IMG/VR virus record: IMGVR_UViG_3300035661_000010
Length of the DNA: 64,000 nucleotides
From: a virus
Reading direction: 5' to 3' (one strand)
This document shows, piece after piece, positions 172 to 45,593 of the stretch. Below the pieces are notes generated by a model. It did not search any database, was not told the origin of the DNA, and saw nothing but the letters and a program-made list of their open reading frames with translations. Position 1 is the stretch's first letter; every line of letters begins with the position of its first letter. The position numbers were made by a program, and so were the translations under genes.

Positions 172-1821
172 ATGACCATGACCAAGAACATCACCGAGAA
201 TCGTCGTGATCGTCAGGGAGCACTCCTGATGGATGCGTTCGAGTTCCGTCAGATCGGCCCTCTCACCGAGAGCACCGATTCGGCAGGGCAGCGGAAGGTT
301 ACTGGCAAGGGCACCTTCGGAATGGTGGACGTTCCCACCGCCAACGGACGCCTCTATCGGCGGACGTTGATGGATCGGGAGATCAACCGGCTTCGAGAAC
401 AGATCTCGGCTCGCAAGGTATACGGCGAGCTCGATCATCCCGCAGACGGAAAGACCCTCATGCAGAGGGTCAGCCACCTGATCACGTCTCTGGAGATTCG
501 TCCGGACGGCGTCATCTACGGCGAGATGGAAGTCATCCCGGGTACGCAGCAGGGCCAGAACCTGCTTGCCATCCTGGAGGCGAAGGGTGCAGTGGGCGTG
601 TCGTCGCGAGGCTTTGGCACAACGACCAAGGATGCGAACGGCAACGACGTCGTCAACGACGACTACACGCTCATGACGTTCGATGCGGTCGGTGATCCGG
701 CAGCGGCGAGCGCCTATCCAGAGTTCAAAGGTGTTGGTGGCGCGTCGTCATACGGCGAGAGCAAGGAGTTCGATCAGATGGACATGCAGGAGCTGAAGCA
801 GAAGCACCCCGCTCTCTACGAGAGCATCAAGAAGGAGGCGATCTCCGCTTCTGCCACCGCGATCGCGGAGGCTCGCAAGGACGAGCGCGCGAAGGTGGAG
901 AAGGAGGCTCAGGAGGAGATCAAGAAGATCGCCCCCTCGATGGTGTCCGAGGCTCGCAAGAAGATCGAAGCCCAGTTCAAGAGCGACCCGAAGCTCGCTG
1001 GTGCACTCGGTCTGGTCGAGGCGCTGAAGCCCATCATGGCCCCCTTCGTCGTCGGCGGGGACGCCGCGAAGGCGCTTGCGGAGAAGGACGAAGAGATCGT
1101 CGAACTCCAGGCTCGCCTTCAGGAGTCGAACGAGAAGATCGTCAACCTGACCGAGGAGCGCGACATGGCGGTGAAGATCGGCAAGCGCTCCGTTCTGCAC
1201 CTCCACATGGAGAAGCGCCTCGGTGACTCGGGACAGGGTGCACATCCCTGCGCGGTTCAGCTCCGGTCGATGATCGGTCGGATCGACGAGTCGACCACGC
1301 TCGAAGGTCTTGATCGCAAGATGGAGACGGTCGCCGGTTCGCTTCTCGAAGAGCGGGTTGCGCAGCGTGCGCAGAACCAGGAGATCGTCCGTCTTCGCGA
1401 GAAGCTCGAAGAGAAGAACCGCACGGTCGTCGAATCCCAGGAGCTCGCTCTTCAGATGGCGCTCTCCGGCTACATCGCCAAGAAGTGTGCGCGGCATCCG
1501 GCTTCGTCAATGCTCGAAGAGGCGATCGCGGGTCGTAATCCGCGCTCGAAGGTCGATATCGACACGCTCTTCGACGAGCTGAAGGAGTCGTTCCGCGGAA
1601 GCGAGACGCTTCGGAACGTCCAGGCTGGCGTGAGCCGAGAGGTTCCTCAGCGGCGCTCGATGGGACCGTCTGGCGTCAACAACGGAGGCAACCGTCTCCT
1701 GAGCGAGGGTCGTCGCGGCCCGGCGCCCAAGGGCAAGAACACGCAACCGAAGCAGCAGATCTTCGGCGTGCAGCTCGAAGAGATCCAGAAGCTGGCCGGC
1801 GTCACCGGCCTCAACGGGTAA
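172..1821 (+). CDS. Prohead core protease (T4 gp21-like) fused to a coiled-coil scaffold (gp22-like) region
   Basis: N-terminal motifs ANGRLY, YGELDHP, VSHLI, GVSSRGFG, TFDAVGDP match the T4 gp21 family; the C-terminal ~350 aa are E/K/A-rich helical; directly upstream of the MCP. Confidence 0.9.
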   Translation: MTMTKNITENRRDRQGALLMDAFEFRQIGPLTESTDSAGQRKVTGKGTFGMVDVPTANGRLYRRTLMDREINRLREQISARKVYGELDHPADGKTLMQRVSHLITSLEIRPDGVIYGEMEVIPGTQQGQNLLAILEAKGAVGVSSRGFGTTTKDANGNDVVNDDYTLMTFDAVGDPAAASAYPEFKGVGGASSYGESKEFDQMDMQELKQKHPALYESIKKEAISASATAIAEARKDERAKVEKEAQEEIKKIAPSMVSEARKKIEAQFKSDPKLAGALGLVEALKPIMAPFVVGGDAAKALAEKDEEIVELQARLQESNEKIVNLTEERDMAVKIGKRSVLHLHMEKRLGDSGQGAHPCAVQLRSMIGRIDESTTLEGLDRKMETVAGSLLEERVAQRAQNQEIVRLREKLEEKNRTVVESQELALQMALSGYIAKKCARHPASSMLEEAIAGRNPRSKVDIDTLFDELKESFRGSETLRNVQAGVSREVPQRRSMGPSGVNNGGNRLLSEGRRGPAPKGKNTQPKQQIFGVQLEEIQKLAGVTGLNG

Positions 1822-1884: not shown

Positions 1885-3408
1885 ATGGAAGCACGTGAGA
1901 TCGCTCGGATGCGTTCGCTCGCACAGAACCAGGGAAACGGTCAGCCGCAGCTGCTCGATGAGCAGTATGCGAACCACCTCGTCGGGAAGTGGAACTGGCT
2001 CACGAAGGGCATGGGCCTCGACAAGTGGACCAAGCTCTGCGTCTCGCGCCTCTGCGAGAACCAAATGGAGGAGTTCAAGCGCGCTGCGTCGCGTCGCGGG
2101 ACCGTCCTCTCGGAGGACACCTCGGCCGCGAACATCCCGGACTACGTCCGCTTCATCTTCCCGGTCATCCGCCGCGTGTGGAACAACCTGATCGCTCCAG
2201 GGCTGGTCTCGGTCCAGCCGATGACGGCGCCTGTCGGAGGCGTCTTCGGCTGGGAGTACAAGTACGGCACGTCCAAGGGAACGGTGACCGCGGGTCAGAA
2301 CATGATCCAGAACTTCGACCGGAACTACTCCTCGGAGTATGTCGAGAACGAGCTGATCGGAACCGGCGACGGTGCGACCACCACGTTCAACGACACGATC
2401 TCGTTCCTCCCGGTCAAGGCGACGAGCCTCGCGCAGCAGGGCCTCGCGCTGACCTTCACGGTCGGTGGCGTCACGACCACCAAGCTCCTCGCTGACAAGG
2501 GCGACGGAACCCTCATCGCCGGCTCGGGCATCACGAGCGGCACGATCAGCTACACGGGTGGTGCAATCCACGTCGTGTTCACGACCGCGCCCGACAATGC
2601 GACGCCGATCTACGTGTCGTACTACTTCAGCATGGAGTCCAGCTCCACGAACGTTCCGCAGGTGAACGTCGACATCCAGCTCCAGGAGCTCAAGGCCCAG
2701 AGCCGCAAGCTTCGCTTCAACTGGAACAGCGAGTCGGCGGACGACATGCGGGCGATGCTTGGCATGGACATCGAGTCCGAGCTGGTCTCCGGCGTTGCGA
2801 GCGAGATGTCGCTCGAAATCGATCGCGAGATCATCCAGGAATGCCGCAACTCCGGCACGACGATCCTCCAGTCGTTCGACGCCACGGTGCCGCCTGCGAT
2901 CACCGCGGTCGAGCACTACCGCAACATCCTGACGCCGCTTACGCGCGTCTCGATGGACATCGCGTCGAAGACGAAGCGCGGGCCTGGCAACTGGCTCGTC
3001 ATCCCGACCGACGTCGCGGCGATCCTGAGCCAGCTCGAGACCCACGGCTTCTTCAAGTCGGTGTTCTCGCCTGGTGCGTCTCCGGCAGGCATGGGCGTCC
3101 TCGGACGTCCAGGCTTCCCGGTCCCCGCTGGCCCATCGGGCTACGGCGTGTACCAGCTCGGCGTGCTCCAGAACCGCTGGAACGTTTTCCTCGACCAGTA
3201 CTACCAGTCTGGCGAGATCCTCGTCGGTCTCAAGGGTTCGACGTTCGTCGACGCGGGCTTCGTCTACGCCCCGTATGTCCCCATGCAGGTCACGCCGACC
3301 TTCCTGGAGCCCGCGGACTTCACGCTCCGCAAGGGTATGCGTACCCGATACGCGAAGAAGCTGCTGAACGCGGACTTCTACGGTCGCGTGACGGTCGCCG
3401 GTCTCTGA
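1885..3408 (+). CDS. Major capsid protein, T4 gp23-like, with an inserted beta-rich domain
   Basis: FPVIRRV, VSVQPMTAPVGGVF, AQSRKLR, SLEIDREII, DAGFVYAPYVP, KGMRTRYA motifs; strong SD GGAGG; putative maturation site VLSE|D. Confidence 0.95.
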   Translation: MEAREIARMRSLAQNQGNGQPQLLDEQYANHLVGKWNWLTKGMGLDKWTKLCVSRLCENQMEEFKRAASRRGTVLSEDTSAANIPDYVRFIFPVIRRVWNNLIAPGLVSVQPMTAPVGGVFGWEYKYGTSKGTVTAGQNMIQNFDRNYSSEYVENELIGTGDGATTTFNDTISFLPVKATSLAQQGLALTFTVGGVTTTKLLADKGDGTLIAGSGITSGTISYTGGAIHVVFTTAPDNATPIYVSYYFSMESSSTNVPQVNVDIQLQELKAQSRKLRFNWNSESADDMRAMLGMDIESELVSGVASEMSLEIDREIIQECRNSGTTILQSFDATVPPAITAVEHYRNILTPLTRVSMDIASKTKRGPGNWLVIPTDVAAILSQLETHGFFKSVFSPGASPAGMGVLGRPGFPVPAGPSGYGVYQLGVLQNRWNVFLDQYYQSGEILVGLKGSTFVDAGFVYAPYVPMQVTPTFLEPADFTLRKGMRTRYAKKLLNADFYGRVTVAGL

Positions 3409-3491
3409 TCCGACTGAGGGTTGAGTAGGGGTCGAGCATGGTGCTCGATCCCGCTCTCTCTCTCACCAAGCTCCAAGGAGAACGGATCAAC

Positions 3492-4043
3492 ATGAAGGCC
3501 ACTGTCATCAACGCATCGCAAGCTCCGGTGTACCTGTCCATCACGGCACAGCAGGTCAATGCTGGCGCATCCAAGGTCCTCTCGGGCCTTCGCATGGATC
3601 AGGTCAAGCAGCTGCAAGCCCTGTCCAGCAAGGACATCCAGGTTCAGACTGAGCTGGAGATGATCGACAAAGAGCCGATCGCCAGCACCATGAACACGCC
3701 CGCCAACCCGGTCGGCGGCGTCAAGCTCCTGGCGGGCTCTGGTCTCGTCCTCAAGGATGATGGCGTTGCCATCGCCTATGCGGAGAAGATCGGGCTCGGC
3801 GTCTACGACGATGCAGCGTGCACGATTCCGAGCACGACCGCGACGTTCGACACGGCAACCCAGGGCACCATCGACAAGGGGACCGGCACCAACCGGATCG
3901 AAGGCACGACCGATACGTCGGGCCGCCTCACGCTCCGGCTCAACGTCGGCGTGGCGCGTACCGTGTACACGAAAGCGTTTCCTCTCGCCGCGACCTCTCG
4001 CGTCGTGGACTGCGCAGACAAGCACACGACCGTCTTCTCTTGA
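3492..4043 (+). CDS. Putative capsid decoration protein (paralog A)
   Basis: Immediately after the MCP; Thr/Ala/Gly-rich beta protein; start moved to ATG 3492 (SD AAGGAG; MKATVINAS aligns with paralog MKVTVTNSS). Confidence 0.6.
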   Translation: MKATVINASQAPVYLSITAQQVNAGASKVLSGLRMDQVKQLQALSSKDIQVQTELEMIDKEPIASTMNTPANPVGGVKLLAGSGLVLKDDGVAIAYAEKIGLGVYDDAACTIPSTTATFDTATQGTIDKGTGTNRIEGTTDTSGRLTLRLNVGVARTVYTKAFPLAATSRVVDCADKHTTVFS

Positions 4044-4135: not shown

Positions 4136-4687
4136 ATGAAGGTCACCGTCACGAACAGCAGCCAGGTGGGCGCGGACATCTCGTCGATCAGCCTCTTCCT
4201 GAAGCCAGGAACGAAGAAGGTGGCGTACGGGTGCTCACTTGCTCAAGCAGCGGATGCCCAACGTCACGCGTCCGCTCTTGTTCGAGTCGAGGTGGAGCAG
4301 GACCCGTCAGACAGGCCCATCGCATTCACCACGATGGCTGCTACCGCCGATCCTGCTGCCTTGGCGACAACGTCGGCCGCCCAAGGCTTCACGCTCAAAG
4401 ACTCCGCATCCGCCACGATCTCCATCGCAGAGCCTGTCGGACTCGCAGTCTACGATGATGCGGCGTGCACGATCCTGAGCACGACGGCAACCCTGAACAC
4501 GGCCTCGGTCGGTACCATCACCTCTGGTGCCGGTACGAACAAGGTTGAGATGGTGACCGCCGCCGGCCAGGTTGCGCTGACCGTGACGAAGACGACCGTG
4601 GGAGCTGTCTATCTGAAAGCGTATTCGTTGGCTGGCGCAACTCGAATTCTCGATAGTAGCGGAACACACAAGATCACGTTCTCCTGA
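4136..4687 (+). CDS. Putative capsid decoration protein (paralog B)
   Basis: Shares G(L/V)(G/A)VYDDAACTIxSTTAT..GTI..GxGTN and KA(F/Y)xLAxxxR(V/I) blocks with 3492..4043. Confidence 0.6.
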   Translation: MKVTVTNSSQVGADISSISLFLKPGTKKVAYGCSLAQAADAQRHASALVRVEVEQDPSDRPIAFTTMAATADPAALATTSAAQGFTLKDSASATISIAEPVGLAVYDDAACTILSTTATLNTASVGTITSGAGTNKVEMVTAAGQVALTVTKTTVGAVYLKAYSLAGATRILDSSGTHKITFS

Positions 4688-5432: not shown

Positions 5433-6197
5433 ATGACGAACGATGACCTTGCCCAGTACGTCCTTCGCTACTTTGGCAAGGAGGTCGTTGATGTCGAACT
5501 GTCAGCTCGACAGCTCGTGGACATCCAGGGGGACGCGTTCCGATGGTTCAACGATCGGAAGGGCCTGCGCTGTAATGCGGGTCTGATCCTTACGGGCGCT
5601 CCGCAGTACGATCTAAGCTCGCTGAATCCAGCGGTGCAGGAGGTGCTGAGCGTGGCCTTTCCGCACGCAACGGACGTTGACCTTCGAGCCATCTATGGGG
5701 ACGACCTCGCGCTACCCGGTGTCCCCTGGGGCATGTTCCCGTACGGAGCACTACAGGGAGGCGTCTACTCGTCTCTTGTCCAGGCGGTTCAGTACCGAAA
5801 GACGGCCTCCAAGGTGATCTCCGCGGATCTCGATTGGGAGTTTCGACGGGTGATCGACCCGCTGACGCCGGGTGCGGCTCCGAAGCCGATGCTTGGGGTC
5901 ACACCTGGGTTCAACGGTCCGCAGGGTCAGGCGATCATTCGCTACAAGGCGAAGCTCACTTCGATGGACCAGTTAGCGAACGATGACCGCGGTGAAGATT
6001 TTGTCGTCCGAAGAGCGGTCATCGCTGCCAAGGCTCGCCTCGGTCAGATCCGAGGAAAATGGCAAACGTTGCCGACAGCGCGCGGCGAACGGTCGATGAA
6101 TGGCTCTGAGCTCCTGTCTTCAGCTGCCGAGGAGCTGAAGGATTTGAACGACGACATGGCATCAACGAACATGCCCATCCCGTTCTTCACGGCATAG
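5433..6197 (+). CDS. Neck / head-tail adaptor protein (T4 gp13-like)
   Basis: N-term LAQYVLRYFGKEVVDVELSARQL and C-term GKWQTLP...MNGSELLSSAAEEL resemble gp13. Confidence 0.75.
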   Translation: MTNDDLAQYVLRYFGKEVVDVELSARQLVDIQGDAFRWFNDRKGLRCNAGLILTGAPQYDLSSLNPAVQEVLSVAFPHATDVDLRAIYGDDLALPGVPWGMFPYGALQGGVYSSLVQAVQYRKTASKVISADLDWEFRRVIDPLTPGAAPKPMLGVTPGFNGPQGQAIIRYKAKLTSMDQLANDDRGEDFVVRRAVIAAKARLGQIRGKWQTLPTARGERSMNGSELLSSAAEELKDLNDDMASTNMPIPFFTA

Positions 6198-6199
6198 TC

Positions 6200-6520
6200 A
6201 TGAAGTCGAAATTCGAGCTACTGCGCGAATCGTCCATGATGCCGCGCCCCGCACACGTGTCTCCGGGAGACCCGGTATTCGTACCGTCGATGGGCAAGGG
6301 TCGTGTGACGGCCGTGACCGCGGGGAGCTGCTGGATTCACTTCGATAAGACGGTCGACGACTCTGGTCAGTCTTCGAGCACGTGGACGTCTACCGCCGCG
6401 CTGATCGCCGACCTCGAATGGAGAGATGGTCGTTGGTACATGGAGCCCAACAAACTCGGCTCCTCTGGCGACGGACCTGGAGCGGAACGATTCTGGGGCG
6501 CACTACCTCCAGGTCAGTAA
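6200..6520 (+). CDS. Hypothetical protein, possible SH3-like fold; candidate internal head protein
   Basis: PGDPVFVPSMGKGRVTAV pattern; N-term ...LLRE|S. Confidence 0.55.
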   Translation: MKSKFELLRESSMMPRPAHVSPGDPVFVPSMGKGRVTAVTAGSCWIHFDKTVDDSGQSSSTWTSTAALIADLEWRDGRWYMEPNKLGSSGDGPGAERFWGALPPGQ

Positions 6521-6607
6521 GACCGCTTCGCTACCCTGCATCCGAAACCTGGTATGGTTGGGCCATTGCAACCTGTCTGGTAAGGTCATCTCTAGGAGAC
6601 GTTCTCG

Positions 6608-7168
6608 ATGAAGAACCTTTCGGCGCTCAAGAATCTGGTCGAACGAGGTGAAGCGGTCCCGACCGATGAGGACGAGGTGCCGAAGAAGCCATCGTCACGC
6701 TACATCGGCGACGTTCTCGACACGCTCATCGCAAGCCGTCATCTTGGCGTCGACGAGGTCGATGATGCTGCCTCCGCGATTGCAAGCAACGCGGAAGACG
6801 GATACGAAGCCGTCGTCGATGCGCTGATCAAGAAGGGCCATGTCCCCGGAAGCAAGCTGATCGACGGTGGTCATCGACGTCTTCGCGAGAAGGTCCGCGG
6901 CGCGATGCGTGAGATGGTCGAGCGCGGTGCCCGCTCGATGCTGGAAGAGGCTCGTGGTCGTCGCAACATGACCGAGCGTCAGCGGACCATCGCCGAACGA
7001 ATCGAGGAAGCGTTCCGAGAGAGCGTTCACGACGTTCTCAAGGCGGAGGGGTACGCTCCGCTGGATGTGGATCAGATGACGGCCGAGGTTCGTTCGCGCA
7101 TCCGCGGGATCGCCAACCGGATTGCGGTCGAGAGTGGCAAGCGCAGCATGCGTCCGTTGAGGGACTGA
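6608..7168 (+). CDS. Hypothetical helical protein; candidate internal head protein
   Basis: SD AGGAG; N-term MKNLSALKNLVE|R; several internal LxE sites. Confidence 0.6.
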   Translation: MKNLSALKNLVERGEAVPTDEDEVPKKPSSRYIGDVLDTLIASRHLGVDEVDDAASAIASNAEDGYEAVVDALIKKGHVPGSKLIDGGHRRLREKVRGAMREMVERGARSMLEEARGRRNMTERQRTIAERIEEAFRESVHDVLKAEGYAPLDVDQMTAEVRSRIRGIANRIAVESGKRSMRPLRD

Positions 7169-7171
7169 TCC

Positions 7172-7672
7172 ATGAAGAGTTTGTTCGAGAGCGCGATGGG
7201 CCTCGTCGAAGAGATCGTCGGCGCCAAGTCGATGGACGAGAAGACGCAGCTCGCTGTGCTTCGTGTCGTCGTGTCTCTCCGTGTCGCGTACATGATCCAC
7301 CAGAACAACCACTGGGTCTCGATGGGTCCGAACTCCTATGGTGACCACCGGCTCTTCGAGCGCCTGTACAAGATGTCTCAGGAGGACGCCGACTCCATGG
7401 CAGAGCGACTCGTTGGTCTTGCAGGGACGGAAGCGATTTCGTTCTCGAAGCAGATCAAGATGATCGACAAGGCACTCGAAGGCGCATCGAACGTCGACCC
7501 GGCCTCATCGTCGCTGCAAATCGAGAAGCAATGCGTCGATGTCATCGACGATGCGCTCAAGGTCGCAGCGGAGGCGAAGGGCCTGACGACCGGGCTCGAC
7601 GACCTCTTGCGTGGACTGAGCAGCAACCGAGAGCAGGCGCTCTATCTGCTCAAGCAAAGGAGTCCCGGGTGA
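7172..7672 (+). CDS. Dps/ferritin-like protein
   Basis: HQNNHWVSMGPNSYGDHRLFERLY...DSMAERL matches the Dps HW-x-G-x-F/Y-x2-H-x-LFE-x-Y...D-x2-AER ferroxidase signature. Confidence 0.8.
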   Translation: MKSLFESAMGLVEEIVGAKSMDEKTQLAVLRVVVSLRVAYMIHQNNHWVSMGPNSYGDHRLFERLYKMSQEDADSMAERLVGLAGTEAISFSKQIKMIDKALEGASNVDPASSSLQIEKQCVDVIDDALKVAAEAKGLTTGLDDLLRGLSSNREQALYLLKQRSPG

Positions 7673-8010
7673 GCGCACTCGATGATCTCGCAGAGCTGGA
7701 GAAGCTGACGAAGTCGCCGAAGACCTCGCGTCGTCCATGCTCTGCTCGAACGATCGAATCTCGGAGAGCGGCCCGTGCCAAGACGTCGGTGTCTCTGGAG
7801 TCGCTCATCGAAGACCTTGATGACAGGGCTGCGCCGATGACGGTCCTGCGCATGGTGGAGGCTGCTGGCGTAAAGTTGTCGAAGCCGCTTACGGAAGCGA
7901 TTCGTCGAGGCGACACGGACATGGCCCGCGTGCTGAAGAGATTCACCGACAAGATTCGGGAGGCCGTGTCATCGGCCGCCGAAGAGACGATAGACGAGCT
8001 GACGAAATGA
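7669..8010 (+). CDS. Hypothetical protein; candidate internal head protein
   Basis: GTG 7669 overlaps the previous stop (GTGA), SD AAGGAG; N-term MSALDDLAE|L. Confidence 0.55.
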   Translation: MSALDDLAELEKLTKSPKTSRRPCSARTIESRRAARAKTSVSLESLIEDLDDRAAPMTVLRMVEAAGVKLSKPLTEAIRRGDTDMARVLKRFTDKIREAVSSAAEETIDELTK

Positions 8011-8510
8011 GCGCGTTCGAGAATCTGCGCGCGAACGACAAGAGCGAGTTCCAGTTCGAAACACTGGCCCTTCGCTATCGACGTCTCGCTCGAGACTATG
8101 CGTCGGTGTGCAGGTCGGCCTTGTCCGATGGAGCTATCTGGGACGGGGTCGGCAAAGGTGCGTCGCAGGCGTTCTGGTTGAAGATGCTGGAGCTGGAGCA
8201 CAAGCGCGAAGGTGTTCGTGTTGGCGTTCTTGGAGACATGCTCAACTCTATCGAGACAGCGAGCGAAGACGACGACCTGGTGGAGCTCGTCATCCGGTTC
8301 GCCGAAGACCAGCACCTTGGACCAGAGAATGCGCAGATCGCACTTCAGGCGGAGATGCTTCGGCAGCTTGCTGTCACCGGGATTTCGCTCCTGAAGAAGG
8401 AGGCGTACGGGGACGTCATGGGTCCGTACTCGGACCGCGGCCCAAGCGAGAGCGCGCTTCTGAAGGCGAAAGAAGTCCTGCGGAAAGCCGTGGAGCTCGA
8501 TCAGCGATGA
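8007..8510 (+). CDS. Hypothetical helical protein
   Basis: ATGA overlap with both neighbours. Confidence 0.55.
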   Translation: MSAFENLRANDKSEFQFETLALRYRRLARDYASVCRSALSDGAIWDGVGKGASQAFWLKMLELEHKREGVRVGVLGDMLNSIETASEDDDLVELVIRFAEDQHLGPENAQIALQAEMLRQLAVTGISLLKKEAYGDVMGPYSDRGPSESALLKAKEVLRKAVELDQR

Positions 8511-8854
8511 GAATGCCGAAGGGTTTCCATCCGCTTGATGAGTCGACAGCCGGAGCTGTCGATGATCTGTGGGCGCATCCGTACCCGTCCTATACGCCTG
8601 ATCCACGCAAGAAGCTGGGGCTCGGGAGCGTCGACTGGTTTCAGAATGTCGTCGGATTACCGGGTGGTGTGGGCTTCGCCGCCGAAGACGATGATCCGGT
8701 CGAGCGCTTACGAGCCGAGGCCGATGCATGGGGACTTGCGTACGGTCAAGAACCGGAGGACCAAGTTTCTGTTCAGAAACGAGAACGCGAAAACTCGAAG
8801 GTTGAGTTACTCCGAAGTAAGGTGAAGAACATCAAGTACAACCAACCGTACTGA
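8507..8854 (+). CDS. Hypothetical protein
   Basis: ATG 8507 overlaps the previous stop; N-term MRMPKGFHPLDE|S. Confidence 0.5.
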   Translation: MRMPKGFHPLDESTAGAVDDLWAHPYPSYTPDPRKKLGLGSVDWFQNVVGLPGGVGFAAEDDDPVERLRAEADAWGLAYGQEPEDQVSVQKRERENSKVELLRSKVKNIKYNQPY

Positions 8855-8876
8855 TCAACCAGGAGAGAGAGCGATC

Positions 8877-9818
8877 ATGAGCACGACAGTCAATTGGATT
8901 TCCGGTGACGACATCAAGATGTTTGGATCGACGCTCGGCCTGAGCAACCAGTCCGTCTCGGTGAGCACGGCACGCCTTCAGGCAGCCATCCTCGGTACGT
9001 CGAAGAAGGACGCAGAAGACCTCCAGAACCTGAAGGTTCACCTCAACAGGTCTCTGTTGACGGTGACCGTCAACGGTGTGTCGTGCGCCACGAAGGGTGC
9101 GTTCCTCGCCGCCATCGCGAATCTCGACCAGGCGGAGGCGACTGACCTCGCGTCCCAGGTCGCAGGCGAGGGCGCGAACAAGGTCGGCGTCGCGAACGTC
9201 GACAAGCTGTACGTGTCGATGGAGGTCGAGGATGCGATTGCCGAGGTCGCTCGTCAGAATCGCCTTCGCAACGTGCGCGCCGTGGTCCAGTCGAACGTGG
9301 CTTCCCTCGCCGCGTGCTCGACGACCCAGGACGGCATCACCCTCGTCGCGGGCGACACCGTTCTCCTCGTCGGGCAGACCACGGCCGCGGAGAACGGCCC
9401 TTACTTGGTCGGTACGCCGACCGCCGGCAACGCTGCGCTGACACGTCCGGGTTGGTGGAAGGCCGGGTACTCGGTTCCGGATGGCTTTGAGTTCATCGTG
9501 GCAACGGACGCGACCAGCGCCACCGCGATGGCGAAGTGGAAGGCCACCGGGCACGGCAAGGTCGTTGGCACCAACGATCCGCTGATCTATCCGGTCCAGA
9601 TCAAGGGCTCGGTTGCGCTGACCTCGGCGACACCGTCGACCGCGTCTGTCGCTTCGCTGTTCATCGCCGCTGGTGCGAAGGCGTACCTCACGGAGACCAC
9701 GAACCAGGCAAACAGCACCCTCAAGGCGGTTCTCTCGGTTGGTCAGGGCAACGGCTCCCTCGCCATCACCGGCGCCGCGACGAACACGGACACGATCGGC
9801 TACCTCATCGTCAACTGA
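8877..9818 (+). CDS. Virion structural protein (head/collar fibre-like)
   Basis: NVRAV...DGITLVAGDTVLLVGQTTAAENGPY is a motif common in phage fibre/decoration proteins; Ala/Thr/Gly-rich; strong codon bias. Confidence 0.65.
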   Translation: MSTTVNWISGDDIKMFGSTLGLSNQSVSVSTARLQAAILGTSKKDAEDLQNLKVHLNRSLLTVTVNGVSCATKGAFLAAIANLDQAEATDLASQVAGEGANKVGVANVDKLYVSMEVEDAIAEVARQNRLRNVRAVVQSNVASLAACSTTQDGITLVAGDTVLLVGQTTAAENGPYLVGTPTAGNAALTRPGWWKAGYSVPDGFEFIVATDATSATAMAKWKATGHGKVVGTNDPLIYPVQIKGSVALTSATPSTASVASLFIAAGAKAYLTETTNQANSTLKAVLSVGQGNGSLAITGAATNTDTIGYLIVN

Positions 9819-10781
9819 ATGCAACTGGCCTCTCTCCTCGTTCTCGAAGCCATGGTGCTTCCGAATCCACCTCCGGACTCGGAAGTGGTCAAGAAGCGCC
9901 GTGGCTTCATGGTTGCGCTCGTGGTGCCACCGGAGATGGAGGAGGAGGTTGCTCGTGCAGGCGGATGGGCGGGTGGAGAGCGTACTTGGTCGGATCCTCT
10001 CCACTGCACGGTCGCGTACGTCATGGATCCGGATCGAAATCTCGCCGCGACCACGGAGATCGTCCGTCGCGTTGCGAAGCAGATCCCGAGCTTCAGTCTG
10101 GTGACGACTCGAGCGGGGTTTTTCCGGAACGAGGAGAAGGATGGCGCCCTCGTTCACTACTGCGGGTGTGCGGCCCCCGAGCTCGATGCGTTCGTCGGGC
10201 TTCTCAGGCGAGAGCTTGATGCTGCGCACATCGAGCACGACACGAACCACCCGCTCTACGTTCCACACATCACGCTGGAGTACGTCGAGAGTCCTGATGA
10301 GATGGAACTGAGAGAGCGACTCCTTCGCTCTACGCAATCGCTAGCGACTCGGTTCGTCCCGACACTGGCCGTCGTGAACGACGATCAGCGGGACGACATT
10401 TCATTCTCGTCTGAAAGTTCGACGCCGAACTGGCAGGGGTCTCCGGATATGGGGTCGTTGGTCACTGGGCTCGGCGAGGCGCTCGATGCTGTTCTGGAGG
10501 CGGACCCGGTGACCGGGAGAAGCTCGCTCCACAAGCACATGGTCGCCGCTGTCTACAAGTCGCTGAGGAAGCGCGGATCGGCCACGAAGGATGCCGCCAC
10601 CGGAGCCTTCAAGATCACGAACTCGAACCTGAAGAAGAACGGCTATCAGGGCAAGGGTGATTCGGGTCGTCTCACCGGAAGTGGTGCGAACCGATCGAAG
10701 AATCACGCCGCCGAACCTGCTGGCGAACGCGCGAAGAAGGACAAGGACTACGCAGCGGTCAAGAAGCTCGCGACCGCGTGA
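9819..10781 (+). CDS. 2H phosphoesterase, Acb1/T4 gp57B-like, with a basic C-terminal extension
   Basis: Two HxT motifs: PLHCTVAY and YVPHITLEY; N-terminal GFMVAL strand; layout resembles T4 57B (GLYVAA...HSTICY...YTPHITLSY). Confidence 0.8.
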   Translation: MQLASLLVLEAMVLPNPPPDSEVVKKRRGFMVALVVPPEMEEEVARAGGWAGGERTWSDPLHCTVAYVMDPDRNLAATTEIVRRVAKQIPSFSLVTTRAGFFRNEEKDGALVHYCGCAAPELDAFVGLLRRELDAAHIEHDTNHPLYVPHITLEYVESPDEMELRERLLRSTQSLATRFVPTLAVVNDDQRDDISFSSESSTPNWQGSPDMGSLVTGLGEALDAVLEADPVTGRSSLHKHMVAAVYKSLRKRGSATKDAATGAFKITNSNLKKNGYQGKGDSGRLTGSGANRSKNHAAEPAGERAKKDKDYAAVKKLATA

Positions 10782-10897
10782 CGTAGCTACCAGGTAGTGA
10801 TACTCGTAGATGAGCGGTGGTTCGGTTGCTGGCGTGTACCGAGACTACGGTGGTAGGTTTAGAAAACGCGTTGGCAGTCGCATCAGGAGAGAAAAAA

Positions 10898-11257
10898 ATG
10901 AACCTTCGTATCGGTGGAACCCTCTCAAGTCGTTCGAGTCAGGCTCGTGGTCGTCAGATGGTCGCGAAGCGCCGTACGGCACAGGTCGAGAACAGCAGGG
11001 TGCCCCACGGCTTCCCGGGCAATGAGGAGCTGTACAACCAGTTCTGTGCGCGCTCCGGGATCTCCGATCAGCGCGTCGAGCAGGCGGAGACAGCTGCGGC
11101 CATAAAGCGGCTCACGGCACGAATGGAGCGCCTACACGAGGGCATGGAGGCTGCTCGTAAGTCGGGCAACGTCAAGAAGGCCCAGCACCTCTTCGTCAAG
11201 CTCAGCGAGTGCATGGTCGCGTACGGCGCATCTCTGGAGACGATGCTCATAGGTTGA
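10898..11257 (+). CDS. Hypothetical protein
   Basis: SD AGGAG then ATG 10898 (MNLRIGG...); C-terminal helical hairpin. Confidence 0.55.
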   Translation: MNLRIGGTLSSRSSQARGRQMVAKRRTAQVENSRVPHGFPGNEELYNQFCARSGISDQRVEQAETAAAIKRLTARMERLHEGMEAARKSGNVKKAQHLFVKLSECMVAYGASLETMLIG

Positions 11258-11261
11258 GCCG

Positions 11262-11777
11262 ATGGGTACGCTCATCGGCGACAAGGATGCGGACTTCTTC
11301 GACGCGCGAGTCCGAGAGATCAACCGGCTCGCGGGAACGTGTGCGATCACGTACTACGCGCTCAACTTCGAAGCGACCCCGAAGGATCCGCTCTACGGTG
11401 AGCCGATTGAAGAGATTCATGTCAGAGACCCGCTGAGAGACACGCTCGGGATCGCCTTCAGTGGGCTCCTGGAGTATCCGGAGCAAAGCGTTCGGACTGG
11501 CGAAGAAGGACAGCACGCGGACTACGACGCGTCCCTCTGGCTTGCGCGCAAGGACTTCGAGGAAAAGTTCCCGATCCCCAACGCACCAAAGGGCACGCCC
11601 TGCGCACGACAGCCAAAGGTCGGAGACGTCATCCAGGTCCAGGATCGCTACTACGACGTCATGGCGATTGACGCGCAGGGCCAGTTCAACGACACCATCG
11701 CGCGACACGCCAACTGGCTATTGAAGTTGAAGCATCGCACGGAGTTTGATGCCCGCCGCCGGCTGGAAGGAAAGTAG
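11262..11777 (+). CDS. Head-closure / neck protein (T4 gp14-like)
   Basis: REINRLAG..ITYY..DPLYGE and PKVGDVI..DRYYDV motifs. Confidence 0.7.
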   Translation: MGTLIGDKDADFFDARVREINRLAGTCAITYYALNFEATPKDPLYGEPIEEIHVRDPLRDTLGIAFSGLLEYPEQSVRTGEEGQHADYDASLWLARKDFEEKFPIPNAPKGTPCARQPKVGDVIQVQDRYYDVMAIDAQGQFNDTIARHANWLLKLKHRTEFDARRRLEGK

Positions 11778-17611: not shown

Positions 17612-19825
17612 ATGGCTAACAAGAGCGCGAAGGTTACGATCGAAGAGCTGCCGGCGGCACCGGGAGCGATTGAGGGCGTTTCGACGTCCACTGTCATCAC
17701 TGCTGGGTGGACGAAGCGAGGCCGCACCGACGTCATCGTCAGGGCAGGAAGCTACGCCGAGGTCGAACAGAAGACGGGGACGTTCTGGAAGAACTCGTAC
17801 ATCGCCTATGCGCTGAACGGCTTCTTCAACAACGACGGTCAGAGCGCGTACATCCGTCGCGTGACGCCGTCTGACGCAGTAGCCGCGAACCTTACGTTGG
17901 CCGATGCCGCAACTGCGGCCGTGTTCATCGGACGCACCTTCGCGACGACTTCGATCACGACCCTGTCGGCGTCAAAGTACAACATGAAGTTCACGGTGAA
18001 CGCCTTCACACCGACCACGGTCGACGTGACTTCGAATGCTGGCGTGTCTGGCTCATACCTGTTGTCGGCGATTGTCACGAACATCAACACGGCGATGGCT
18101 CTCGTGGACGTGTCGCTCTCCAACTTCGCGTCGCTGATCACGCAGGTCACGAGCGCTGGCGTGCGGTACCGCATCCAGCTCACATCTCCGACGACTGGCG
18201 CCGCATCGCAGATCGCATTCACTGCCCCGGTCTCGGGCGGGTGCAGCCTGGAGCTGTTCGGGATCGTCTCGACGGACCTACCGAAGACTGTCCTCGGCCA
18301 AGCTGCCGTGGCGAGTCGCTTCACGGTCACTGCGCTCGGCGCAGGTCTTTGGGGCAACGACATCCAGATCCAGATCGTCGGTGACCCGAACTGGAAGACC
18401 TCGACTGGTGGCTGGACCAAGTTCGACGCCATCATCAACGAGGAGCTGGACGGCAACAACAAGTTCACCACGCGCGAGACCTATTCGGAAGTCGTCCTCG
18501 ATGTCGACACCGACCCGGCGTTCATCGCTGGGTACATCGGAGCTCGCTCGAGCTACGTGACGGTGACGGAAGGTGTCGGGTACGGCATCCCACGCACCCT
18601 CGTACCCGTGTCGATCACGAAGGAGTTCCTTGGTGACGCAGTCGGCAACGCGTCGCTCACGACCTTTACTGGTCGCCTGATGAACCTGCCGAACCGCAAG
18701 AACGTCACCATCACCACGACCCTCACCGGTGCGATCAGCGTGAACGTGACCGACAACGGTACTGGGTCCTTCTCCGGAACGGGCGTGTCGTCTGGCACGG
18801 TCGACTACATGACCGGCGAGATCAGTATCACGTTCTCCGCAGCTCCGACTGCTGGAACCCCCGTCTACGTGGCGTACACGACCACGGCTAGCGACACAGT
18901 CACGTACGATCTGGCAAGCGGTACGGATGGCACTGGTCCTCTGGGTCGTTCAGACGTCACCGATCCGTCGCTAGCCGCGACGAAGGGTGGCATCTATCTG
19001 TTCAACGACATCACGGATGAAGTGCTCAACGTCATCCTGCCTGACTTCGCAGGCGTGCTGTCGGTGCACAACGACCTGATCTCCTGGGCAGAGACGAGGA
19101 AGGACATCTTCGTCATCCTGGATCCGGCGGCCGGGCTCGATGCCGCCGGCGTGGTCACGTACCGCAGGGACACGGGCGCGTTCAATACGTCCTACGCCGC
19201 GCTGTACTGGCCGTGGATCAAGACCGCAGACAGCCTCGCGAATGGAGCGCCCAAGAACGTGCCGCCCTCTGGACACGTGGCGGGCGTCTACGCACGGACC
19301 GACTCTACGCGCAACGTCGCCAAGGCGCCCGCTGGCGTCACGGATGGTCGACTCGTCGGAACCCTCGGGTTCGAGCGAACGATCTCCGAGACCGATCGTG
19401 ACACGGTCTACCCGACTGGCGTCAACCCAATGATCGGCGAGCGCCAGACGGGCCGAGCTGTCTGGGGCGCCAGGACGCTCTCGCTCGACAAGCGCTGGCG
19501 CTACATCCAAGCGCGCAGATTCTTTCTGTTCGTCGAGAAGAGCATCTTCGTCAACTCGTGGTGGACGGTCTTCGAGACGATCGGTCCGGAGCTGTTCAGT
19601 CGAATCCAGACGAACGTCCGCGGTTTCCTCCGCGGCCTGCTTGCTCAGGGGTACTTCCCAACCAAGAAGGAGGAGGACGCGTTCGCGGTCGTGGTCGACA
19701 ACACGAACAACGACGACAACTCCTCGCAGAACGGCGAAGTCATCATCGACACGTTCCTCGCAACCACGACCCCAGGCGAGTTCATTCGCTTCCGGTTCCG
19801 TCAGAAGATCGCCCTCGCGGCGTGA
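17612..19825 (+). CDS. Contractile tail sheath protein
   Basis: SYAALYWPWI, VPPSGHVAGVYARTD, VAKAPAG, VWGARTL, WRYIQARR, PGEFIRFRF motifs. Confidence 0.95.
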   Translation: MANKSAKVTIEELPAAPGAIEGVSTSTVITAGWTKRGRTDVIVRAGSYAEVEQKTGTFWKNSYIAYALNGFFNNDGQSAYIRRVTPSDAVAANLTLADAATAAVFIGRTFATTSITTLSASKYNMKFTVNAFTPTTVDVTSNAGVSGSYLLSAIVTNINTAMALVDVSLSNFASLITQVTSAGVRYRIQLTSPTTGAASQIAFTAPVSGGCSLELFGIVSTDLPKTVLGQAAVASRFTVTALGAGLWGNDIQIQIVGDPNWKTSTGGWTKFDAIINEELDGNNKFTTRETYSEVVLDVDTDPAFIAGYIGARSSYVTVTEGVGYGIPRTLVPVSITKEFLGDAVGNASLTTFTGRLMNLPNRKNVTITTTLTGAISVNVTDNGTGSFSGTGVSSGTVDYMTGEISITFSAAPTAGTPVYVAYTTTASDTVTYDLASGTDGTGPLGRSDVTDPSLAATKGGIYLFNDITDEVLNVILPDFAGVLSVHNDLISWAETRKDIFVILDPAAGLDAAGVVTYRRDTGAFNTSYAALYWPWIKTADSLANGAPKNVPPSGHVAGVYARTDSTRNVAKAPAGVTDGRLVGTLGFERTISETDRDTVYPTGVNPMIGERQTGRAVWGARTLSLDKRWRYIQARRFFLFVEKSIFVNSWWTVFETIGPELFSRIQTNVRGFLRGLLAQGYFPTKKEEDAFAVVVDNTNNDDNSSQNGEVIIDTFLATTTPGEFIRFRFRQKIALAA

Positions 19826-20627: not shown

Positions 20628-21092
20628 ATGGCGCGCAAGAGGCAAGACGACTTCATCCAGAGTTTCCGGTTCCACGTGGTGGAGCCAACGGGGACGTTCC
20701 TGACGGCGACTGCTGGGTTCAAGACTGTCACCGTGCCCGACAAGAGCCTCGCTCCTGCCGAGTATCGCGATGGCCTCACGCTCTACACGGTGAAGCAACC
20801 GGGTATCCCGACAATTGGTACTGCGACGTTGGCCCAGGGCGCGACCAAGAAGCAGTCCGAGTTCTTCAAGTGGATGAAAGCGTGTGCCGAGGGTGCCGAG
20901 TACCGAGCGGACCTCCAGATCGTCGTCCACGACAACTCGAACGTCTCGCCGCCGAACGTCGTCAAGGAGATCGATCTGTTCGAGTGCTTCCCGCTTCGCA
21001 ACAAGCCGATTGGCGACCTCGACTCCACGAACTCCGAGATCAACGTCCGCGAGCTCGAAGTTGCTGTCGAGCAGTGGGAAGAGAAGACCTAA
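20628..21092 (+). CDS. Tail tube protein (T4 gp19 / Afp1-like)
   Basis: FRFHV..AGF...EYRDG..KQPG..ATLAQG..FFKW...GDLDS..EI.VRELEV. Confidence 0.9.
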   Translation: MARKRQDDFIQSFRFHVVEPTGTFLTATAGFKTVTVPDKSLAPAEYRDGLTLYTVKQPGIPTIGTATLAQGATKKQSEFFKWMKACAEGAEYRADLQIVVHDNSNVSPPNVVKEIDLFECFPLRNKPIGDLDSTNSEINVRELEVAVEQWEEKT

Positions 21093-41342: not shown

Positions 41343-44300
41343 ATGGGTATCGACGTTGGCCTTTCAATCCCGGGAGTCAATGCCGGTGACGTAGTCGCCA
41401 GCAGCAATGGCTTTTCGGCGGTCGCCAATACGCTCGATGTGCCCGCTGGACAGGACATCGGCACTGCTGCCACGTGGAATATCCCTGCCTACGATGCAAC
41501 GATCTTTGGCGCGAACATACAACGTTGGTATCGAGCTATTGATATTGACGGCAACACGATCACTTCGGGTATCTGGCGAGACTCCGCGCACAACTTCGAT
41601 TCGATCATCGGTGGCGGCCTCGTTCTTCCGACGCTTGCGCTGATCAGTGGGAACGCGGCCCTCGAGTTTGTTGGTGGCACGACCGCACCGTTGGTCATTT
41701 CCTACGGTGGTAGTGGTAGCGGATCACTGACTACGCCACCCATTGGTCAGACGTTCGGTGGCGTCATGACCGTTGGCTTCGTGATTGAAACCACGACGTA
41801 CAGTAGCGGGACTGGACCACAGGTCGTGGTCGGACAAAGTTACTACGGCAACGAGTTTGTTTTCGCCGTGGACTGGATCAGCAGCGCTGACGGAAAGCTG
41901 TACTTTGTCTACGGCGACGCGGGTTCGGTGTGGATCGCAAGTGACGCGCCTATCGCGGATGGCCATCCGCATACGGTCGTAGGCACGTGTGATGGGGCCT
42001 TCATCCGCCTCTACATTGATGGCGTCTTGCAATCATCGGTCGTCGCCATCAAGCCACCGGACCTGATCAACGGAACTCGATACGACGCTGACGACGTGAG
42101 TGTCGGCGGCACGTCCTTCTTCGGAAACGCAAGCAACAGCGCCTCGACCCTGTTCGTAGGTCGCGTCACTGAGATCGTTCTCGCGGACACCGCACTCGAG
42201 GGCGGTGGCCTTGCCCTGTTCCAAGCGAAGCTTGCGACGCTCACGACGACGCCGAGCACGCCTGTCCACGCGATCTTCGGTAACAACGTCCGGCACTGGT
42301 TCGCGTCTGAATCCACGTACTCAAGCGGCATCTGGTACGACCTCGCGCTTCAGCGGGACGCAGACCAGGGCATCTTCGGCATGTCCGCACCGTCCCCCGC
42401 GACGATCAACGGCAACCGCTGGTACTCATTCAATGGAACCTCGAACGGGTTCGTGGTTCGCCCATCGACGACTGTCAATCCGTCGAATGCACAGGTCGTC
42501 CGCAACAACGCGACGGTCGCGTGTGTATTTCAGACCTCGGTCGTTGGGTACCAGACACTCGTCGCGCAGCAGTTCTACGTTGCCGGGTTCTGGATCTACA
42601 TCGACACGAGCGGCTTTCTTACCGCGACCTTCACTACTGCTGCCGGCTCTGCGCGGTCGAACGCAACTGTTAATGATGGGCTCCCCCACGCGCTCGTCGT
42701 CACGTGGGATGGCACGCTCGGCATCGTCACCATCTATCTCGATGGCGTTGTGCAGACGCAGACGCAGACGGGCGCGACCGGCCCGATGGTCATCGGAACA
42801 TCAGATGATCTGAACATCGGCTGCGTGACTGCAACCAACGGTAACGCGGGCGCGTACTTCTGGAACGGCTACCTCGGTGAGGTGCTGATCGTCGACACGG
42901 TAGCGACCACAGCGCAGCGCACCGCTCTCACGACGTACCTGACGAGCTGGTTCTCGGCTTCCGGAAGCACGATCAACGGAACGATCGCGGCTCAGGCAAC
43001 AACGTCTGTTGTTGCAAACTTGCTCGGCAATGGTGCGGAGACTGAGCAAGCTACCGCTACAGCTTCTGTCGTCGCGAACCTATTGGGCACCGGAGCTCCG
43101 TCCGAGCAGGCAACGGCCACCAGCTCCCTTGTCGCGAGCTTGCTTGGTAATGGGGCTGAGACGGAACAGGCCACGGCCACAGCGTCCGTCGTTGCCAGCG
43201 CGACTGGGGCCGGAGCTCTCTCTGAACAAGCCACAGCCCTTGGCTCGCTTGTCGCGAACGCGGTCGTCATCATTACTGAGCAGGCAACGGTCACTGGCTC
43301 CGTGGTCGCGAACGCAACGGCCTCGGGCGCCTTGACGGAGACCTCGCAGGCCACCGCTTCTCTGCAAGCGAACATTGTCGCTGCCCTTTCGGAGCAAGCT
43401 TCCGCCGCCGCGTCCCTCGTTGCGAATGCGGCAGGGTCCAGTGCATTGAGCGAACAGGCTACGGCAACAGGTTCGGCTACCCTCGACCTTCGTGGAGCAG
43501 TACCAGGTACCGAACAAGCCACCGCCGCCGGGTCGTTGGTCGCCAACCTGCTCGGAGCTGGAGCCCTCACTGAGCAAGCTACTGCTATAGCTTCGTTCGT
43601 CGGCTCGGCGGCCGCTACGCTGTCTGGTGGTGAGCAGGCCACCGCCACATCGTCGCTTGTCGCGAACCTGCTGGGGACAGATGCGGCCTCGGAACAAGCC
43701 GTGGCAACGACGTCCCTCGTCGCCAGCGCTCTAGGAAGCGGCCCGGAGACCGAACAAGCCACTGCTACGACGTCCCTTGCCGCGAGCGCTACAGGCGCGG
43801 GTGCGCTGACGGAGCAAGCGACAGCCACCGGAACGCTGCAAGCGAACATCGTTGCTGCGCTTACCGAGCAGGCGACAGCCACGGGTTCGGTGGTTGCGAA
43901 TTCTACTGGTGCGGGTGCTCTCACAGAGCAGACCGCCGCGACTACGTCAGTGACGGCGACCACTGGAGTTATCGTCACCGAGCAGGCGACCGCAAATACG
44001 TCGTTGGTTACCAACGGTGTGGGCGCCGCTGCGGGGTCCGAGACATCGCAGGCAACGGCATCGGCCGTTCTGGACCTTCGTGGGACCGGAAGTCTGAGTG
44101 AACAAGCTGCCGCCACCAGTTCTGTTGTAGCAGGCGCAACAGGAGCCGAAGCTGGGTCCGAGCAGGCCACTGCGATAACGTCGTTGGTTGCGAGCCTTCT
44201 CGGTACTGATGCTGCTTCGGAGCAGGCCACGGCCACGAGCTCCATGGTCGCGAATGCTCTTGGCAAGGGCGCCATCATGGAGGCGGCCCAGGCAACAGGC

Positions 44301-45593
44301 TCTCTCCAGGCCACGATTGTCGCCGCGGTGACGGAACAAGCCCAGGCGACCGGATCCGCTGTCCTCAATGCAACAGGCAGCGGCGTCCTGACCGATCAGT
44401 CCCAGGCCACGACGTCCGTTCAGGCCAGCATCGTGGCCGCGGTGAGTGAGACGACTCAGGCGAACGCATCCGTCCTTGCGAACGCAGTGGGCGCAGGGGC
44501 TCTCACGGTCGCCGCTTCGTCCACGACCTCGGTCGTTGCGTCCTCCACGGGATCTCTTGCGGCTACGCAAGCGTCTCAGGCAACAGGATCGACGGTGCTG
44601 AGCGCCCTCGCCAAAGGGGCCGTTACGGAACAGGCTTTGGCGGCAGCCTCTCTCGTCGCCAACCCGTCTGGAGCTGGCGTGCTCACCGAGCAGGCAACTG
44701 CTGCGGCATCGACCGATCTGACGGGTCAGGCAATCGCCAGCGGCACAGGTGCCATCCAGGCCCAGGCGAACGCTTCGCTCATCGCCAACATGACAGGATT
44801 GATTCCTGGAACGATGGCGGCCACTGCTACGGCTTCAGTCTCTGTGGTAGACGTCGGTACTGGATTCATGTCTGCCCAGGAGCAGGCCACAACGTCGCTC
44901 ATCGTGAACGTCCTTGGCAAGGGAGGTCCGACTTCCGCTTCGCAAGCGCTTGCGTCGATGTCTGGATCGATCTCTGGATCCGATGCGGCCACGATGCAGT
45001 CTCTGGTCGCCGCGTCTCTCCTTGCAACCGGGACAGACACTCTTGCCGGAACGTTCGCAGGGTCTGCCACCAGCTCGGTGATCGCTACCGCCCTCGGTAC
45101 TGGATCTCCGTCGATGAGCACCCAGGCATCGGCGTCCGTGGTGCTCGGGCTGGCTGGCGTTGACTCTTCGTTCATCGGGGTGACGGTGACGTCATCGGCA
45201 ACGATGAATATCGGCGGTCTTCGCTCCGGAACGCTTCAAGCGCAGGTCACAACGTCAGCAGCAATGCCGCTTGGTGGTATCACGCAAATGACAGCCCAGC
45301 TCAACGCAGCTGGATTCGTGACTCTCGACATGATCGCGATGGGTGCTCCATCGTTTGCCGCTTCTTCGATCACGGACCTCGTCGCGCTCATCGGAGCCAC
45401 GCTCGGCACATCGGTCTCGATTGATGTCATGGCATCTGGCTCGTTCACCATCCACGGCATCGTCGTGTCGAAAGTGAAGAGTGTGGCAGTATTGCTCAGC
45501 TCGGTGCATCGCAATCCGATCCTCTTCACGCAGACTCGGTCCGCACTAGCCAAGATTGGCTATACGAGAACTCGCAAGAAGCCTGGTTCGTAG
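41343..45593 (+). CDS. Long tail fibre / adhesin: two LamG (ConA-like) domains plus long EQATAT repeat shaft
   Basis: ADGHPHTVVGT.DG..IRLYIDG and NDGLPHALVVTWDG..TIYLDG LamG motifs; tens of ~16-20-aa EQATAT repeats. Confidence 0.75.
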   Translation: MGIDVGLSIPGVNAGDVVASSNGFSAVANTLDVPAGQDIGTAATWNIPAYDATIFGANIQRWYRAIDIDGNTITSGIWRDSAHNFDSIIGGGLVLPTLALISGNAALEFVGGTTAPLVISYGGSGSGSLTTPPIGQTFGGVMTVGFVIETTTYSSGTGPQVVVGQSYYGNEFVFAVDWISSADGKLYFVYGDAGSVWIASDAPIADGHPHTVVGTCDGAFIRLYIDGVLQSSVVAIKPPDLINGTRYDADDVSVGGTSFFGNASNSASTLFVGRVTEIVLADTALEGGGLALFQAKLATLTTTPSTPVHAIFGNNVRHWFASESTYSSGIWYDLALQRDADQGIFGMSAPSPATINGNRWYSFNGTSNGFVVRPSTTVNPSNAQVVRNNATVACVFQTSVVGYQTLVAQQFYVAGFWIYIDTSGFLTATFTTAAGSARSNATVNDGLPHALVVTWDGTLGIVTIYLDGVVQTQTQTGATGPMVIGTSDDLNIGCVTATNGNAGAYFWNGYLGEVLIVDTVATTAQRTALTTYLTSWFSASGSTINGTIAAQATTSVVANLLGNGAETEQATATASVVANLLGTGAPSEQATATSSLVASLLGNGAETEQATATASVVASATGAGALSEQATALGSLVANAVVIITEQATVTGSVVANATASGALTETSQATASLQANIVAALSEQASAAASLVANAAGSSALSEQATATGSATLDLRGAVPGTEQATAAGSLVANLLGAGALTEQATAIASFVGSAAATLSGGEQATATSSLVANLLGTDAASEQAVATTSLVASALGSGPETEQATATTSLAASATGAGALTEQATATGTLQANIVAALTEQATATGSVVANSTGAGALTEQTAATTSVTATTGVIVTEQATANTSLVTNGVGAAAGSETSQATASAVLDLRGTGSLSEQAAATSSVVAGATGAEAGSEQATAITSLVASLLGTDAASEQATATSSMVANALGKGAIMEAAQATGSLQATIVAAVTEQAQATGSAVLNATGSGVLTDQSQATTSVQASIVAAVSETTQANASVLANAVGAGALTVAASSTTSVVASSTGSLAATQASQATGSTVLSALAKGAVTEQALAAASLVANPSGAGVLTEQATAAASTDLTGQAIASGTGAIQAQANASLIANMTGLIPGTMAATATASVSVVDVGTGFMSAQEQATTSLIVNVLGKGGPTSASQALASMSGSISGSDAATMQSLVAASLLATGTDTLAGTFAGSATSSVIATALGTGSPSMSTQASASVVLGLAGVDSSFIGVTVTSSATMNIGGLRSGTLQAQVTTSAAMPLGGITQMTAQLNAAGFVTLDMIAMGAPSFAASSITDLVALIGATLGTSVSIDVMASGSFTIHGIVVSKVKSVAVLLSSVHRNPILFTQTRSALAKIGYTRTRKKPGS
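42990..45460 (+). repeat. Coding tandem repeat (consensus ~EQATATxSxVAxxxGxGAL)
   Basis: Recurring GAGCAGGC/GAACAAGC..AC.GC.AC at 48-60 nt spacing, degenerating toward the 3' end. Confidence 0.8.

Follow-up and report, generated by a model that had tools for sequence, protein, structure and literature searches.

The open reading frame (ORF) at positions 9819-10781 of the window (the whole 64,000-nucleotide stretch of viral DNA analysed) encodes a protein, P0001, in which a 2H phosphoesterase stands between a short leader ending in glutamate and a basic helical module that recurs elsewhere as a stand-alone protein. With moderate confidence, we propose that P0001 is a precursor of capsid-internal ejection proteins that is cut into the 2H enzyme and the basic protein, which are delivered with the DNA. 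The 2H fold, catalytic motifs, modularity, synteny and motif conservation are observed; from them its cleavage, packaging and ejection, but not its substrate, are inferred with some comparative backing, and the substrate is a matter of conjecture. In the proposed pathway, the short N-terminal leader would target the precursor to the assembling prohead core and the T4 gp21-type prohead protease would cut after Glu10 and Glu227, and perhaps Glu220. Two free proteins would result inside the head: the 2H phosphoesterase, acidic, catalytically intact and of ~24 kDa, and the basic helical protein, of 9.7 kDa. The basic module would be the ancestral, conserved product of the locus, with the 2H domain as cargo between the cleavage motifs of the pro-peptide. 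Once injected together with the DNA, the enzyme would act at the outset of infection by hydrolysing bonds of the 2',3'-cyclic-phosphate, 2'-5' or cyclic-oligonucleotide type, and would so either clear defence signals or heal or process cleaved RNA.

The segment comes from an uncultured T4-like phage, has a GC content of 60% and carries almost all of its genes on the + strand. The virion operon described in the earlier note is present, with S77 protease, gp23-type capsid, adaptor, sheath and tube genes in the same window (Table 1) and tape-measure and baseplate hub genes further downstream of the capsid gene. The ORF under study is placed between the head-tail adaptor and the tail sheath, directly after the decoration-like gene, and its start ATG abuts the TGA stop of the upstream gene (TGAATG). 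P0001 is identical on nine metagenome contigs. Neither megablast with positions 8800-11300 nor tblastn with P0001 gave a match among 50,697 phage records, and a scan of IMG/VR with the 2H family alignment found no relatives. For the capsid protein, identity to anything in these 50,697 deposited genomes is only ~30%, and an uncultured 595-kb phage supplies the best match. Two adjacent paralogues with similar C-terminal halves lie 3' of the capsid gene (3438-4043 and 4136-4687, both +; MKATVINAS.. and MKVTVTNSS..); they match no family, and a role in capsid decoration or as accessory proteins of the vertex is possible. The product of 41343-45593 (+), which has 1416 aa and Laminin_G/ConA-like lectin domains, is probably a tail fibre or receptor-binding protein, and the non-structural part of the window contains a 229-aa DNA polymerase beta-like protein (57385-58074, +; Pfam DNA_pol_B_thumb, E 2.4e-18, and a palm domain).

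Table 1. Features of the virion gene module and of the precursor ORF (window coordinates).
Feature	Coordinates	Strand	Remarks
S77 prohead protease, T4 gp21-type	172-1821	+	Pfam S77 E 2.1e-14; phrog_207 E 2.1e-40
gp23-type major capsid protein	1885-3408	+	Pfam Gp23 E 4.6e-61
Head-tail adaptor	5433-6197		
Small genes with similar Glu-ending leaders	6200-8854	+	Starts 6200, 6608, 7172 (Dps-like), 7669, 8507
Decoration-like gene	8877-9818		phrog_2647
Whole precursor ORF, 320 aa, P0001	9819-10781	+	Leader, 2H enzyme, linker, basic module
10-residue N-terminal leader MQLASLLVLE	9819-9848	+	Predicted capsid-targeting/pro-peptide; predicted cut after Glu10
2H phosphoesterase core, residues 28-200	9900-10418	+	pLDDT 90-98; Pfam PF13563 and PF02834
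Catalytic motif 1, H62-C-T64 (LHCTVAY)	10002-10010	+	Invariant H, T in alignments A5, A2
Catalytic motif 2, H150-I-T152 (PHITLEY)	10266-10274	+	Invariant P-H-x-T in alignments A5, A2
Acidic linker, residues 201-227, ending LGE(220) and VLE(227)	10419-10499	+	pLDDT ~50; predicted cut after Glu227
Basic four-helix module, residues 228-320, pI 10.4	10500-10778	+	Homologous to stand-alone head-module family
Tail sheath	17612-19825		
Tail tube	20628-21092		

The elements that the earlier note had picked out were all recovered in the ORF: both HxT motifs, the leader LLVLE/A (residues 6-11; slashes mark the position after Glu), a linker, LDAVLE/A (residues 222-228) and a Lys/Arg-rich tail of ~90 residues. 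The last 93 residues contain 20 Lys and Arg, and residues 11-227 have a pI of 4.8. In an AlphaFold2 model that drew on an alignment of 57 sequences, a poorly predicted linker (residues 201-230, pLDDT ~50) is followed by a helical C-terminal domain (pLDDT 83-96). Residues 3-13 form an N-terminal helix (pLDDT 84), and by this model the leader helix could belong to the folded protein. A signal peptide or membrane anchor was considered for the leader and rejected on inspection, given its ~13 hydrophobic residues, the Glu in mid-stretch and the lack of a basic N-region.

P0001 is a member of the 2H phosphoesterase superfamily with a confident fold. Pfam identified 2_5_RNA_ligase2 (PF13563; E 1.8e-10, 41.5 bits against a cut-off of 27) and LigT_PEase (PF02834; E 1.4e-7, 32.0 bits against 23.3). 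Both H-x-T pairs are invariant across six homologues of 34-60% identity, and because the catalytic motifs are kept down to 34% identity the enzyme is very probably active. A phmmer search of PDB sequences with P0001 found nothing, and profiles were needed to reach structures. The profile from the six closest homologues retrieved the RNA 2',3'-cyclic phosphodiesterase (CPDase) 5h7e at E 1.4e-7 and no Acb1 at E<=10, and a wider 2H profile retrieved ThpR/LigT at 1e-19 to 1e-11 and Acb1 7t26 at E 3.4e-5. Structural comparison with VIA-align gave the highest scores for the CPDase from D. radiodurans (5h7e; Z 15.3), T. thermophilus 1iuh (14.8) and P. horikoshii 1vdx (14.6), followed by Rotavirus VP3 (13.2), Usb1 (13.1), AKAP18 (13.0), E. 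coli LigT (~13) and the Penguinpox cGAMP PDE (10.9); Acb1 7t26 ranked 44th (Z 9.7, rmsd 3.2, 132 residues, 20% identity), its Z being lowered by its smaller size. The Pfam Acb1 model (PF23474) did not match P0001 at E<=0.1, and its scores for three relatives (P0006, P0007 and P0008; 15.3-18.6 bits) fall under the 27-bit cut-off. Membership of the Acb1 family was accordingly rejected. The enzyme is a LigT-type 2H protein, closest to the ThpR/LigT RNA 2',3'-cyclic phosphodiesterases by Pfam, PDB profile and structure. The 'Acb1-like' label given in the earlier note is true only at the superfamily level and should be dropped. A closer structural match to LigT, as seen here (Z 15.3 against 9.7 for Acb1), is among the outcomes that the note itself had named as refuting its reading.

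The substrate cannot be read from the 2H fold. LigT-like enzymes have been adapted repeatedly by viruses to cleave 2-5A or cGAMP (PMC11410667), and we rate anti-signalling and RNA-end roles about equally for this enzyme. A Pfam search of the ten largest non-structural ORFs, a part of the genome, found no RNA ligase or polynucleotide kinase, a result that is compatible with a role in RNA repair.

The wider lineage of the enzyme is associated with virion proteins. Among 45 more distant 2H relatives, ten carry an XkdF-type prohead protease (Peptidase_S78_2), six a portal, two ART-PolyVal and one MuF, and among the best BFVD neighbours of P0001 are large proteins of actinophages that bear the names 'capsid morphogenesis protein' and 'structural protein'. 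On this evidence the lineage is habitually virion-linked. These relatives belong to the polyvalent proteins described by Iyer et al. (2017; PMC5512222), who noted that such 2H domains never associate with RNA ligases and proposed for them either RNase activity or the degradation of defence nucleotides.

Closer relatives show how the gene is put together. When 1.84 billion representatives were searched exhaustively, seven members of the 2H family, full-length or partial, were recovered (P0002-P0008), together with small proteins matching only residues ~222-316 of P0001 (P0014, P0016, P0028 and P0040). The leader is kept as hydrophobic-hydrophobic-Glu followed by Ala or Ser in P0002-P0004 and is internal to the reading frame in P0006 and P0007, which are fusion forms; P0005, which bears the module, is without a leader as called. 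The leader ends in VLE10/A in P0001 and in AIE/A, MLE/S, AVE/A, VME/A and ALE/A in relatives. All six module-bearing homologues have [LIV]-x-Glu upstream of the module in a linker that is otherwise unconserved, with VLE/A, LQE/V, VVE/G, IAE/A, LAE/I and LSE/A as the junction motifs. In P0007 a homologue of the upstream small gene (window 8507-8854) is fused to leader, 2H domain and module, LESLLALE/A being internal, and P0008 has the same N-terminal fusion with only a short tail, followed by a decoration-like gene. In two independent samples (L012 and L013), the 2H and basic-module genes are separate and overlap at TGATG. The module gene there begins MSFDIDEFLLE/D, continues with the basic module and is followed by a homologue of the window's downstream gene, and the gene boundary in L012 coincides with the predicted cut between linker and module. 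These split genes indicate that at least one relative has the 2H domain and the basic module working as independent polypeptides.

The reading of the ORF as leader, enzyme and separable module is thus well supported by comparison of sequences. Of the polyprotein with a separable basic tail that had been put forward earlier, the separability of the modules stands, on the stand-alone family, the split genes, the fusions and the retained [LIV]-x-Glu; the identity given to the enzyme does not. The leader of the 2H family (..LLVLE/AMVL, ..LIAIE/ALVL) resembles the first leader motif of the stand-alone module proteins (..SILE/AVLD, ..DLLE/ALVE), and the simplest reading is that an ancestral pro-peptide received the 2H domain between its two Glu-ending motifs. 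The neighbouring block at 8507-8854 seems especially prone to the insertion and fusion of domains: its protein has 114 aa in the window and 305 aa in L001 (426-1343), which has an insert of ~190 aa without a Pfam family. Pfam found no families in ten neighbouring small ORFs or in this 305-aa variant.

The basic module itself (10500-10778; proteins P0058-P0111) represents a new, widespread and previously unannotated family of small virion-module proteins without a known fold. Shorter homologues of residues 228-320 escaped a word-based search, and it was the exhaustive representative and profile searches that revealed them. The tail profile retrieved 57 proteins, most of them stand-alone and of ~160 aa, all unnamed or 'hypothetical protein' at source and nearly all from metagenome collections. 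Most relatives in which the module is kept have no 2H domain. A typical stand-alone protein starts with an acidic hydrophobic leader (for example MRFTLTES-LVLLEF...L-x-E/A), continues with a strongly basic segment and ends in the helical module. In 57 of the 58 basic-module proteins checked, [LIVM]-x-Glu falls among residues 1-25, and in most L-x-E precedes the basic part as well. Eight positions are invariant in an alignment of 41 module sequences (Ser235, His240, Gly253, Leu285, Gly289, His296, Glu299 and Lys307 in P0001 numbering).

The module was modelled as a four-helix domain (pLDDT 84.6). It belongs to no Pfam or PHROG family, has no convincing structural match in the PDB (best Z 4.6) and matches nothing in BFVD at E<=0.001; the ESM Atlas gave viral hypothetical clusters and a weak likeness to winged-helix regulators (TM ~0.4). 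Its charge suggests the idea of DNA binding. Two stand-alone proteins (P0099 and P0028) had no match among the 50,697 phage records, and the window holds no second copy of the module. In L008 (36% GC) and L010 the stand-alone gene lies downstream of gp23 and a gp13-like adaptor, as in the window, and in L010 it is upstream of the sheath. The homologue of window 11262-11777 is the second gene downstream of the module gene in L008, with one gene between, again as in the window.

T4 gp21 cleaves after Glu within short hydrophobic-x-Glu motifs. In P0001, [LIVM]-x-Glu occurs at residues 10, 42, 166, 220 and 227, and three of these five (10, 220 and 227) fall at domain borders. The density of the motif is 1.57 per 100 aa window-wide versus 5.6 in the C-terminal half of the protease ORF, and the capsid protein has four of its six motifs in the first 100 residues (for example VLSE77/D). 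A Glu-ending leader at residues 6-16 is found in six of the eight genes in 6200-10781 versus nine of 65 elsewhere (Fisher p = 6e-4), with the caveat that the motif-enrichment tests and the leader motif were defined after the pattern had been seen. We infer the specificity of the protease from this distribution of motifs, and it is presumed to process the P0001 precursor. At the first site of the 2H family, V, A or M stands two positions ahead of Glu, compared with the L or I typical of T4, and because of this atypical residue Glu10 may mark a targeting helix rather than a cut.

The protease ORF itself has 549 aa, with the S77 domain in approximately the first 265 residues, and its C-terminal half looks like a fused scaffold because it is coiled-coil-like and carries 16 [LIVM]-x-Glu motifs. 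The Dps/ferritin-like protein at 7172-7672 (+; Pfam Ferritin, E 2.4e-5; phrog_3636 'DNA binding protein', E 5.2e-10) has a similar leader (MKSLFES..GLVE/E) and is a further candidate for packaging in the capsid. In L008 (1461-15853), K/L-rich leaders ending in L-x-Glu (MNKLLEE.., MKKLLRE.., ..NNLLEE..) open many of the small genes that follow gp23, and the leader system seems to be clade-wide.

These motifs can also be read without processing. P0001 might be an unpackaged 2H enzyme, made late and active in the cytoplasm in Acb1-like signal degradation or in the healing of RNA 2',3'-cyclic-phosphate ends, that happens to be encoded in a structural operon, its Glu motifs being features of helices. 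Most LigT-like enzymes of phages, like T4 Acb1, are soluble and cytoplasmic, homologues of Acb1 are among the structural neighbours of P0001 and the window-wide density is that at which [LIVM]-x-Glu would be met by chance. CBASS signals, moreover, typically arise late in infection, so that pre-packaging of an enzyme against them is not obviously needed. We nevertheless consider this explanation unlikely, since it accounts neither for the Glu motif conserved in an otherwise unconserved linker nor for stand-alone module leaders that nearly all end in such a motif, and it leaves unexplained why the split and fused variants are broken just where the junctions are predicted and why the 2H lineage favours fusion with portals and prohead proteases.

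If P0001 is packaged, it could still stay in one piece, with the basic module as the tether between the enzyme and the packaged DNA or head core and with ejection of the fusion as a whole. Retention of the fusion in at least six homologues, a tail of such high pI that it could bind DNA and the weak winged-helix likeness of the module would all fit, but [LIV]-x-Glu is kept at the junction, the linker is predicted to be disordered and the split two-gene form has the modules working apart, so that an uncut tether seems quite unlikely. That P0001 is instead a morphogenetic core or scaffold component, degraded and expelled at head maturation and with an assembly role or no later enzymatic role for the 2H domain, is highly improbable: the gene does lie among head-completion genes, and the T4 core proteins gp22, gp67 and gp68 are cut to fragments that leave the head (PMC5694885), but the invariant His-x-Thr pairs argue for a working enzyme, the folded 2H core holds only two [LIVM]-x-Glu matches and the 2H domain is dispensable for assembly because most basic-module relatives lack it.

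Should processing into two capsid-internal proteins be correct, phages would add injected enzymes by inserting a domain into a cleavable pro-peptide and not by portal or MuF fusion. The locus would then join two known themes, the internal proteins of T4 and the 2H domains of polyvalent proteins, and would supply a candidate immune-signal or RNA-end phosphodiesterase acting at time zero of infection. A more specific version, possible although doubtful, is that the head pro-peptide serves as a cargo slot from which a packaged 2H enzyme is freed and injected, destroying immune signals or undoing RNA cleavage before phage genes are expressed. The candidate signals would be those of CBASS, type III CRISPR, Thoeris-type or 2'-5' oligoadenylate-like systems. 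Judged by the literature searched, this would be the first pre-packaged signal-degrading enzyme that is a T4-type internal protein. An early-acting virion counter-defence is plausible because a 2025 preprint (10.1101/2025.07.23.666291) shows that CBASS can be countered, through a different mechanism, by a virion protein that is ejected.

Among known systems, Acb1 (T4 gp57B; FBB1 7t26/7t27; Burkholderia phage BCSR5 9q2g) shares with P0001 a phage-encoded 2H/LigT-like fold with two catalytic His residues; unlike P0001, it is a small stand-alone protein (144-165 aa in the solved chains) without a leader or basic tail. The ThpR/LigT CPDases (5h7e, 1iuh, 1vdx and 5ldi) have the same 2H fold and HxT dyad (Z 13-15.3) at 15-19% identity, and P0001 adds to them the leader, the basic module and the location in a virion module. 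The polyvalent 2H proteins (Iyer et al., 2017) are the nearest sequence relatives outside the P0001 family, neither has a linked RNA ligase (for P0001, neither ligase nor kinase among the ten largest non-structural ORFs) and both would deliver a 2H enzyme via the virion, as those authors proposed for theirs. Polyvalent proteins do so through covalent fusion to portal, MuF or protease, whereas P0001 has only the leader, the 2H domain and the basic module, and its delivery would depend on a cleavable leader of the T4 type and release by the prohead protease. In layout, with no sequence homology claimed, there is also a likeness to T4 IPI-III and Alt, which share a gp21-type protease, a gp23-type capsid, a leader of ~10 residues ending in hydrophobic-x-Glu and an enzyme cargo, here a 2H phosphoesterase. 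The T4 internal proteins use a cleaved capsid-targeting sequence, and Alt is trimmed by gp21 at both ends (ITE-6 and LTE-619; PMC5694885, PMC3012670). The C-terminal piece of P0001, by contrast, represents a conserved protein family in itself and not a pro-peptide to be discarded.
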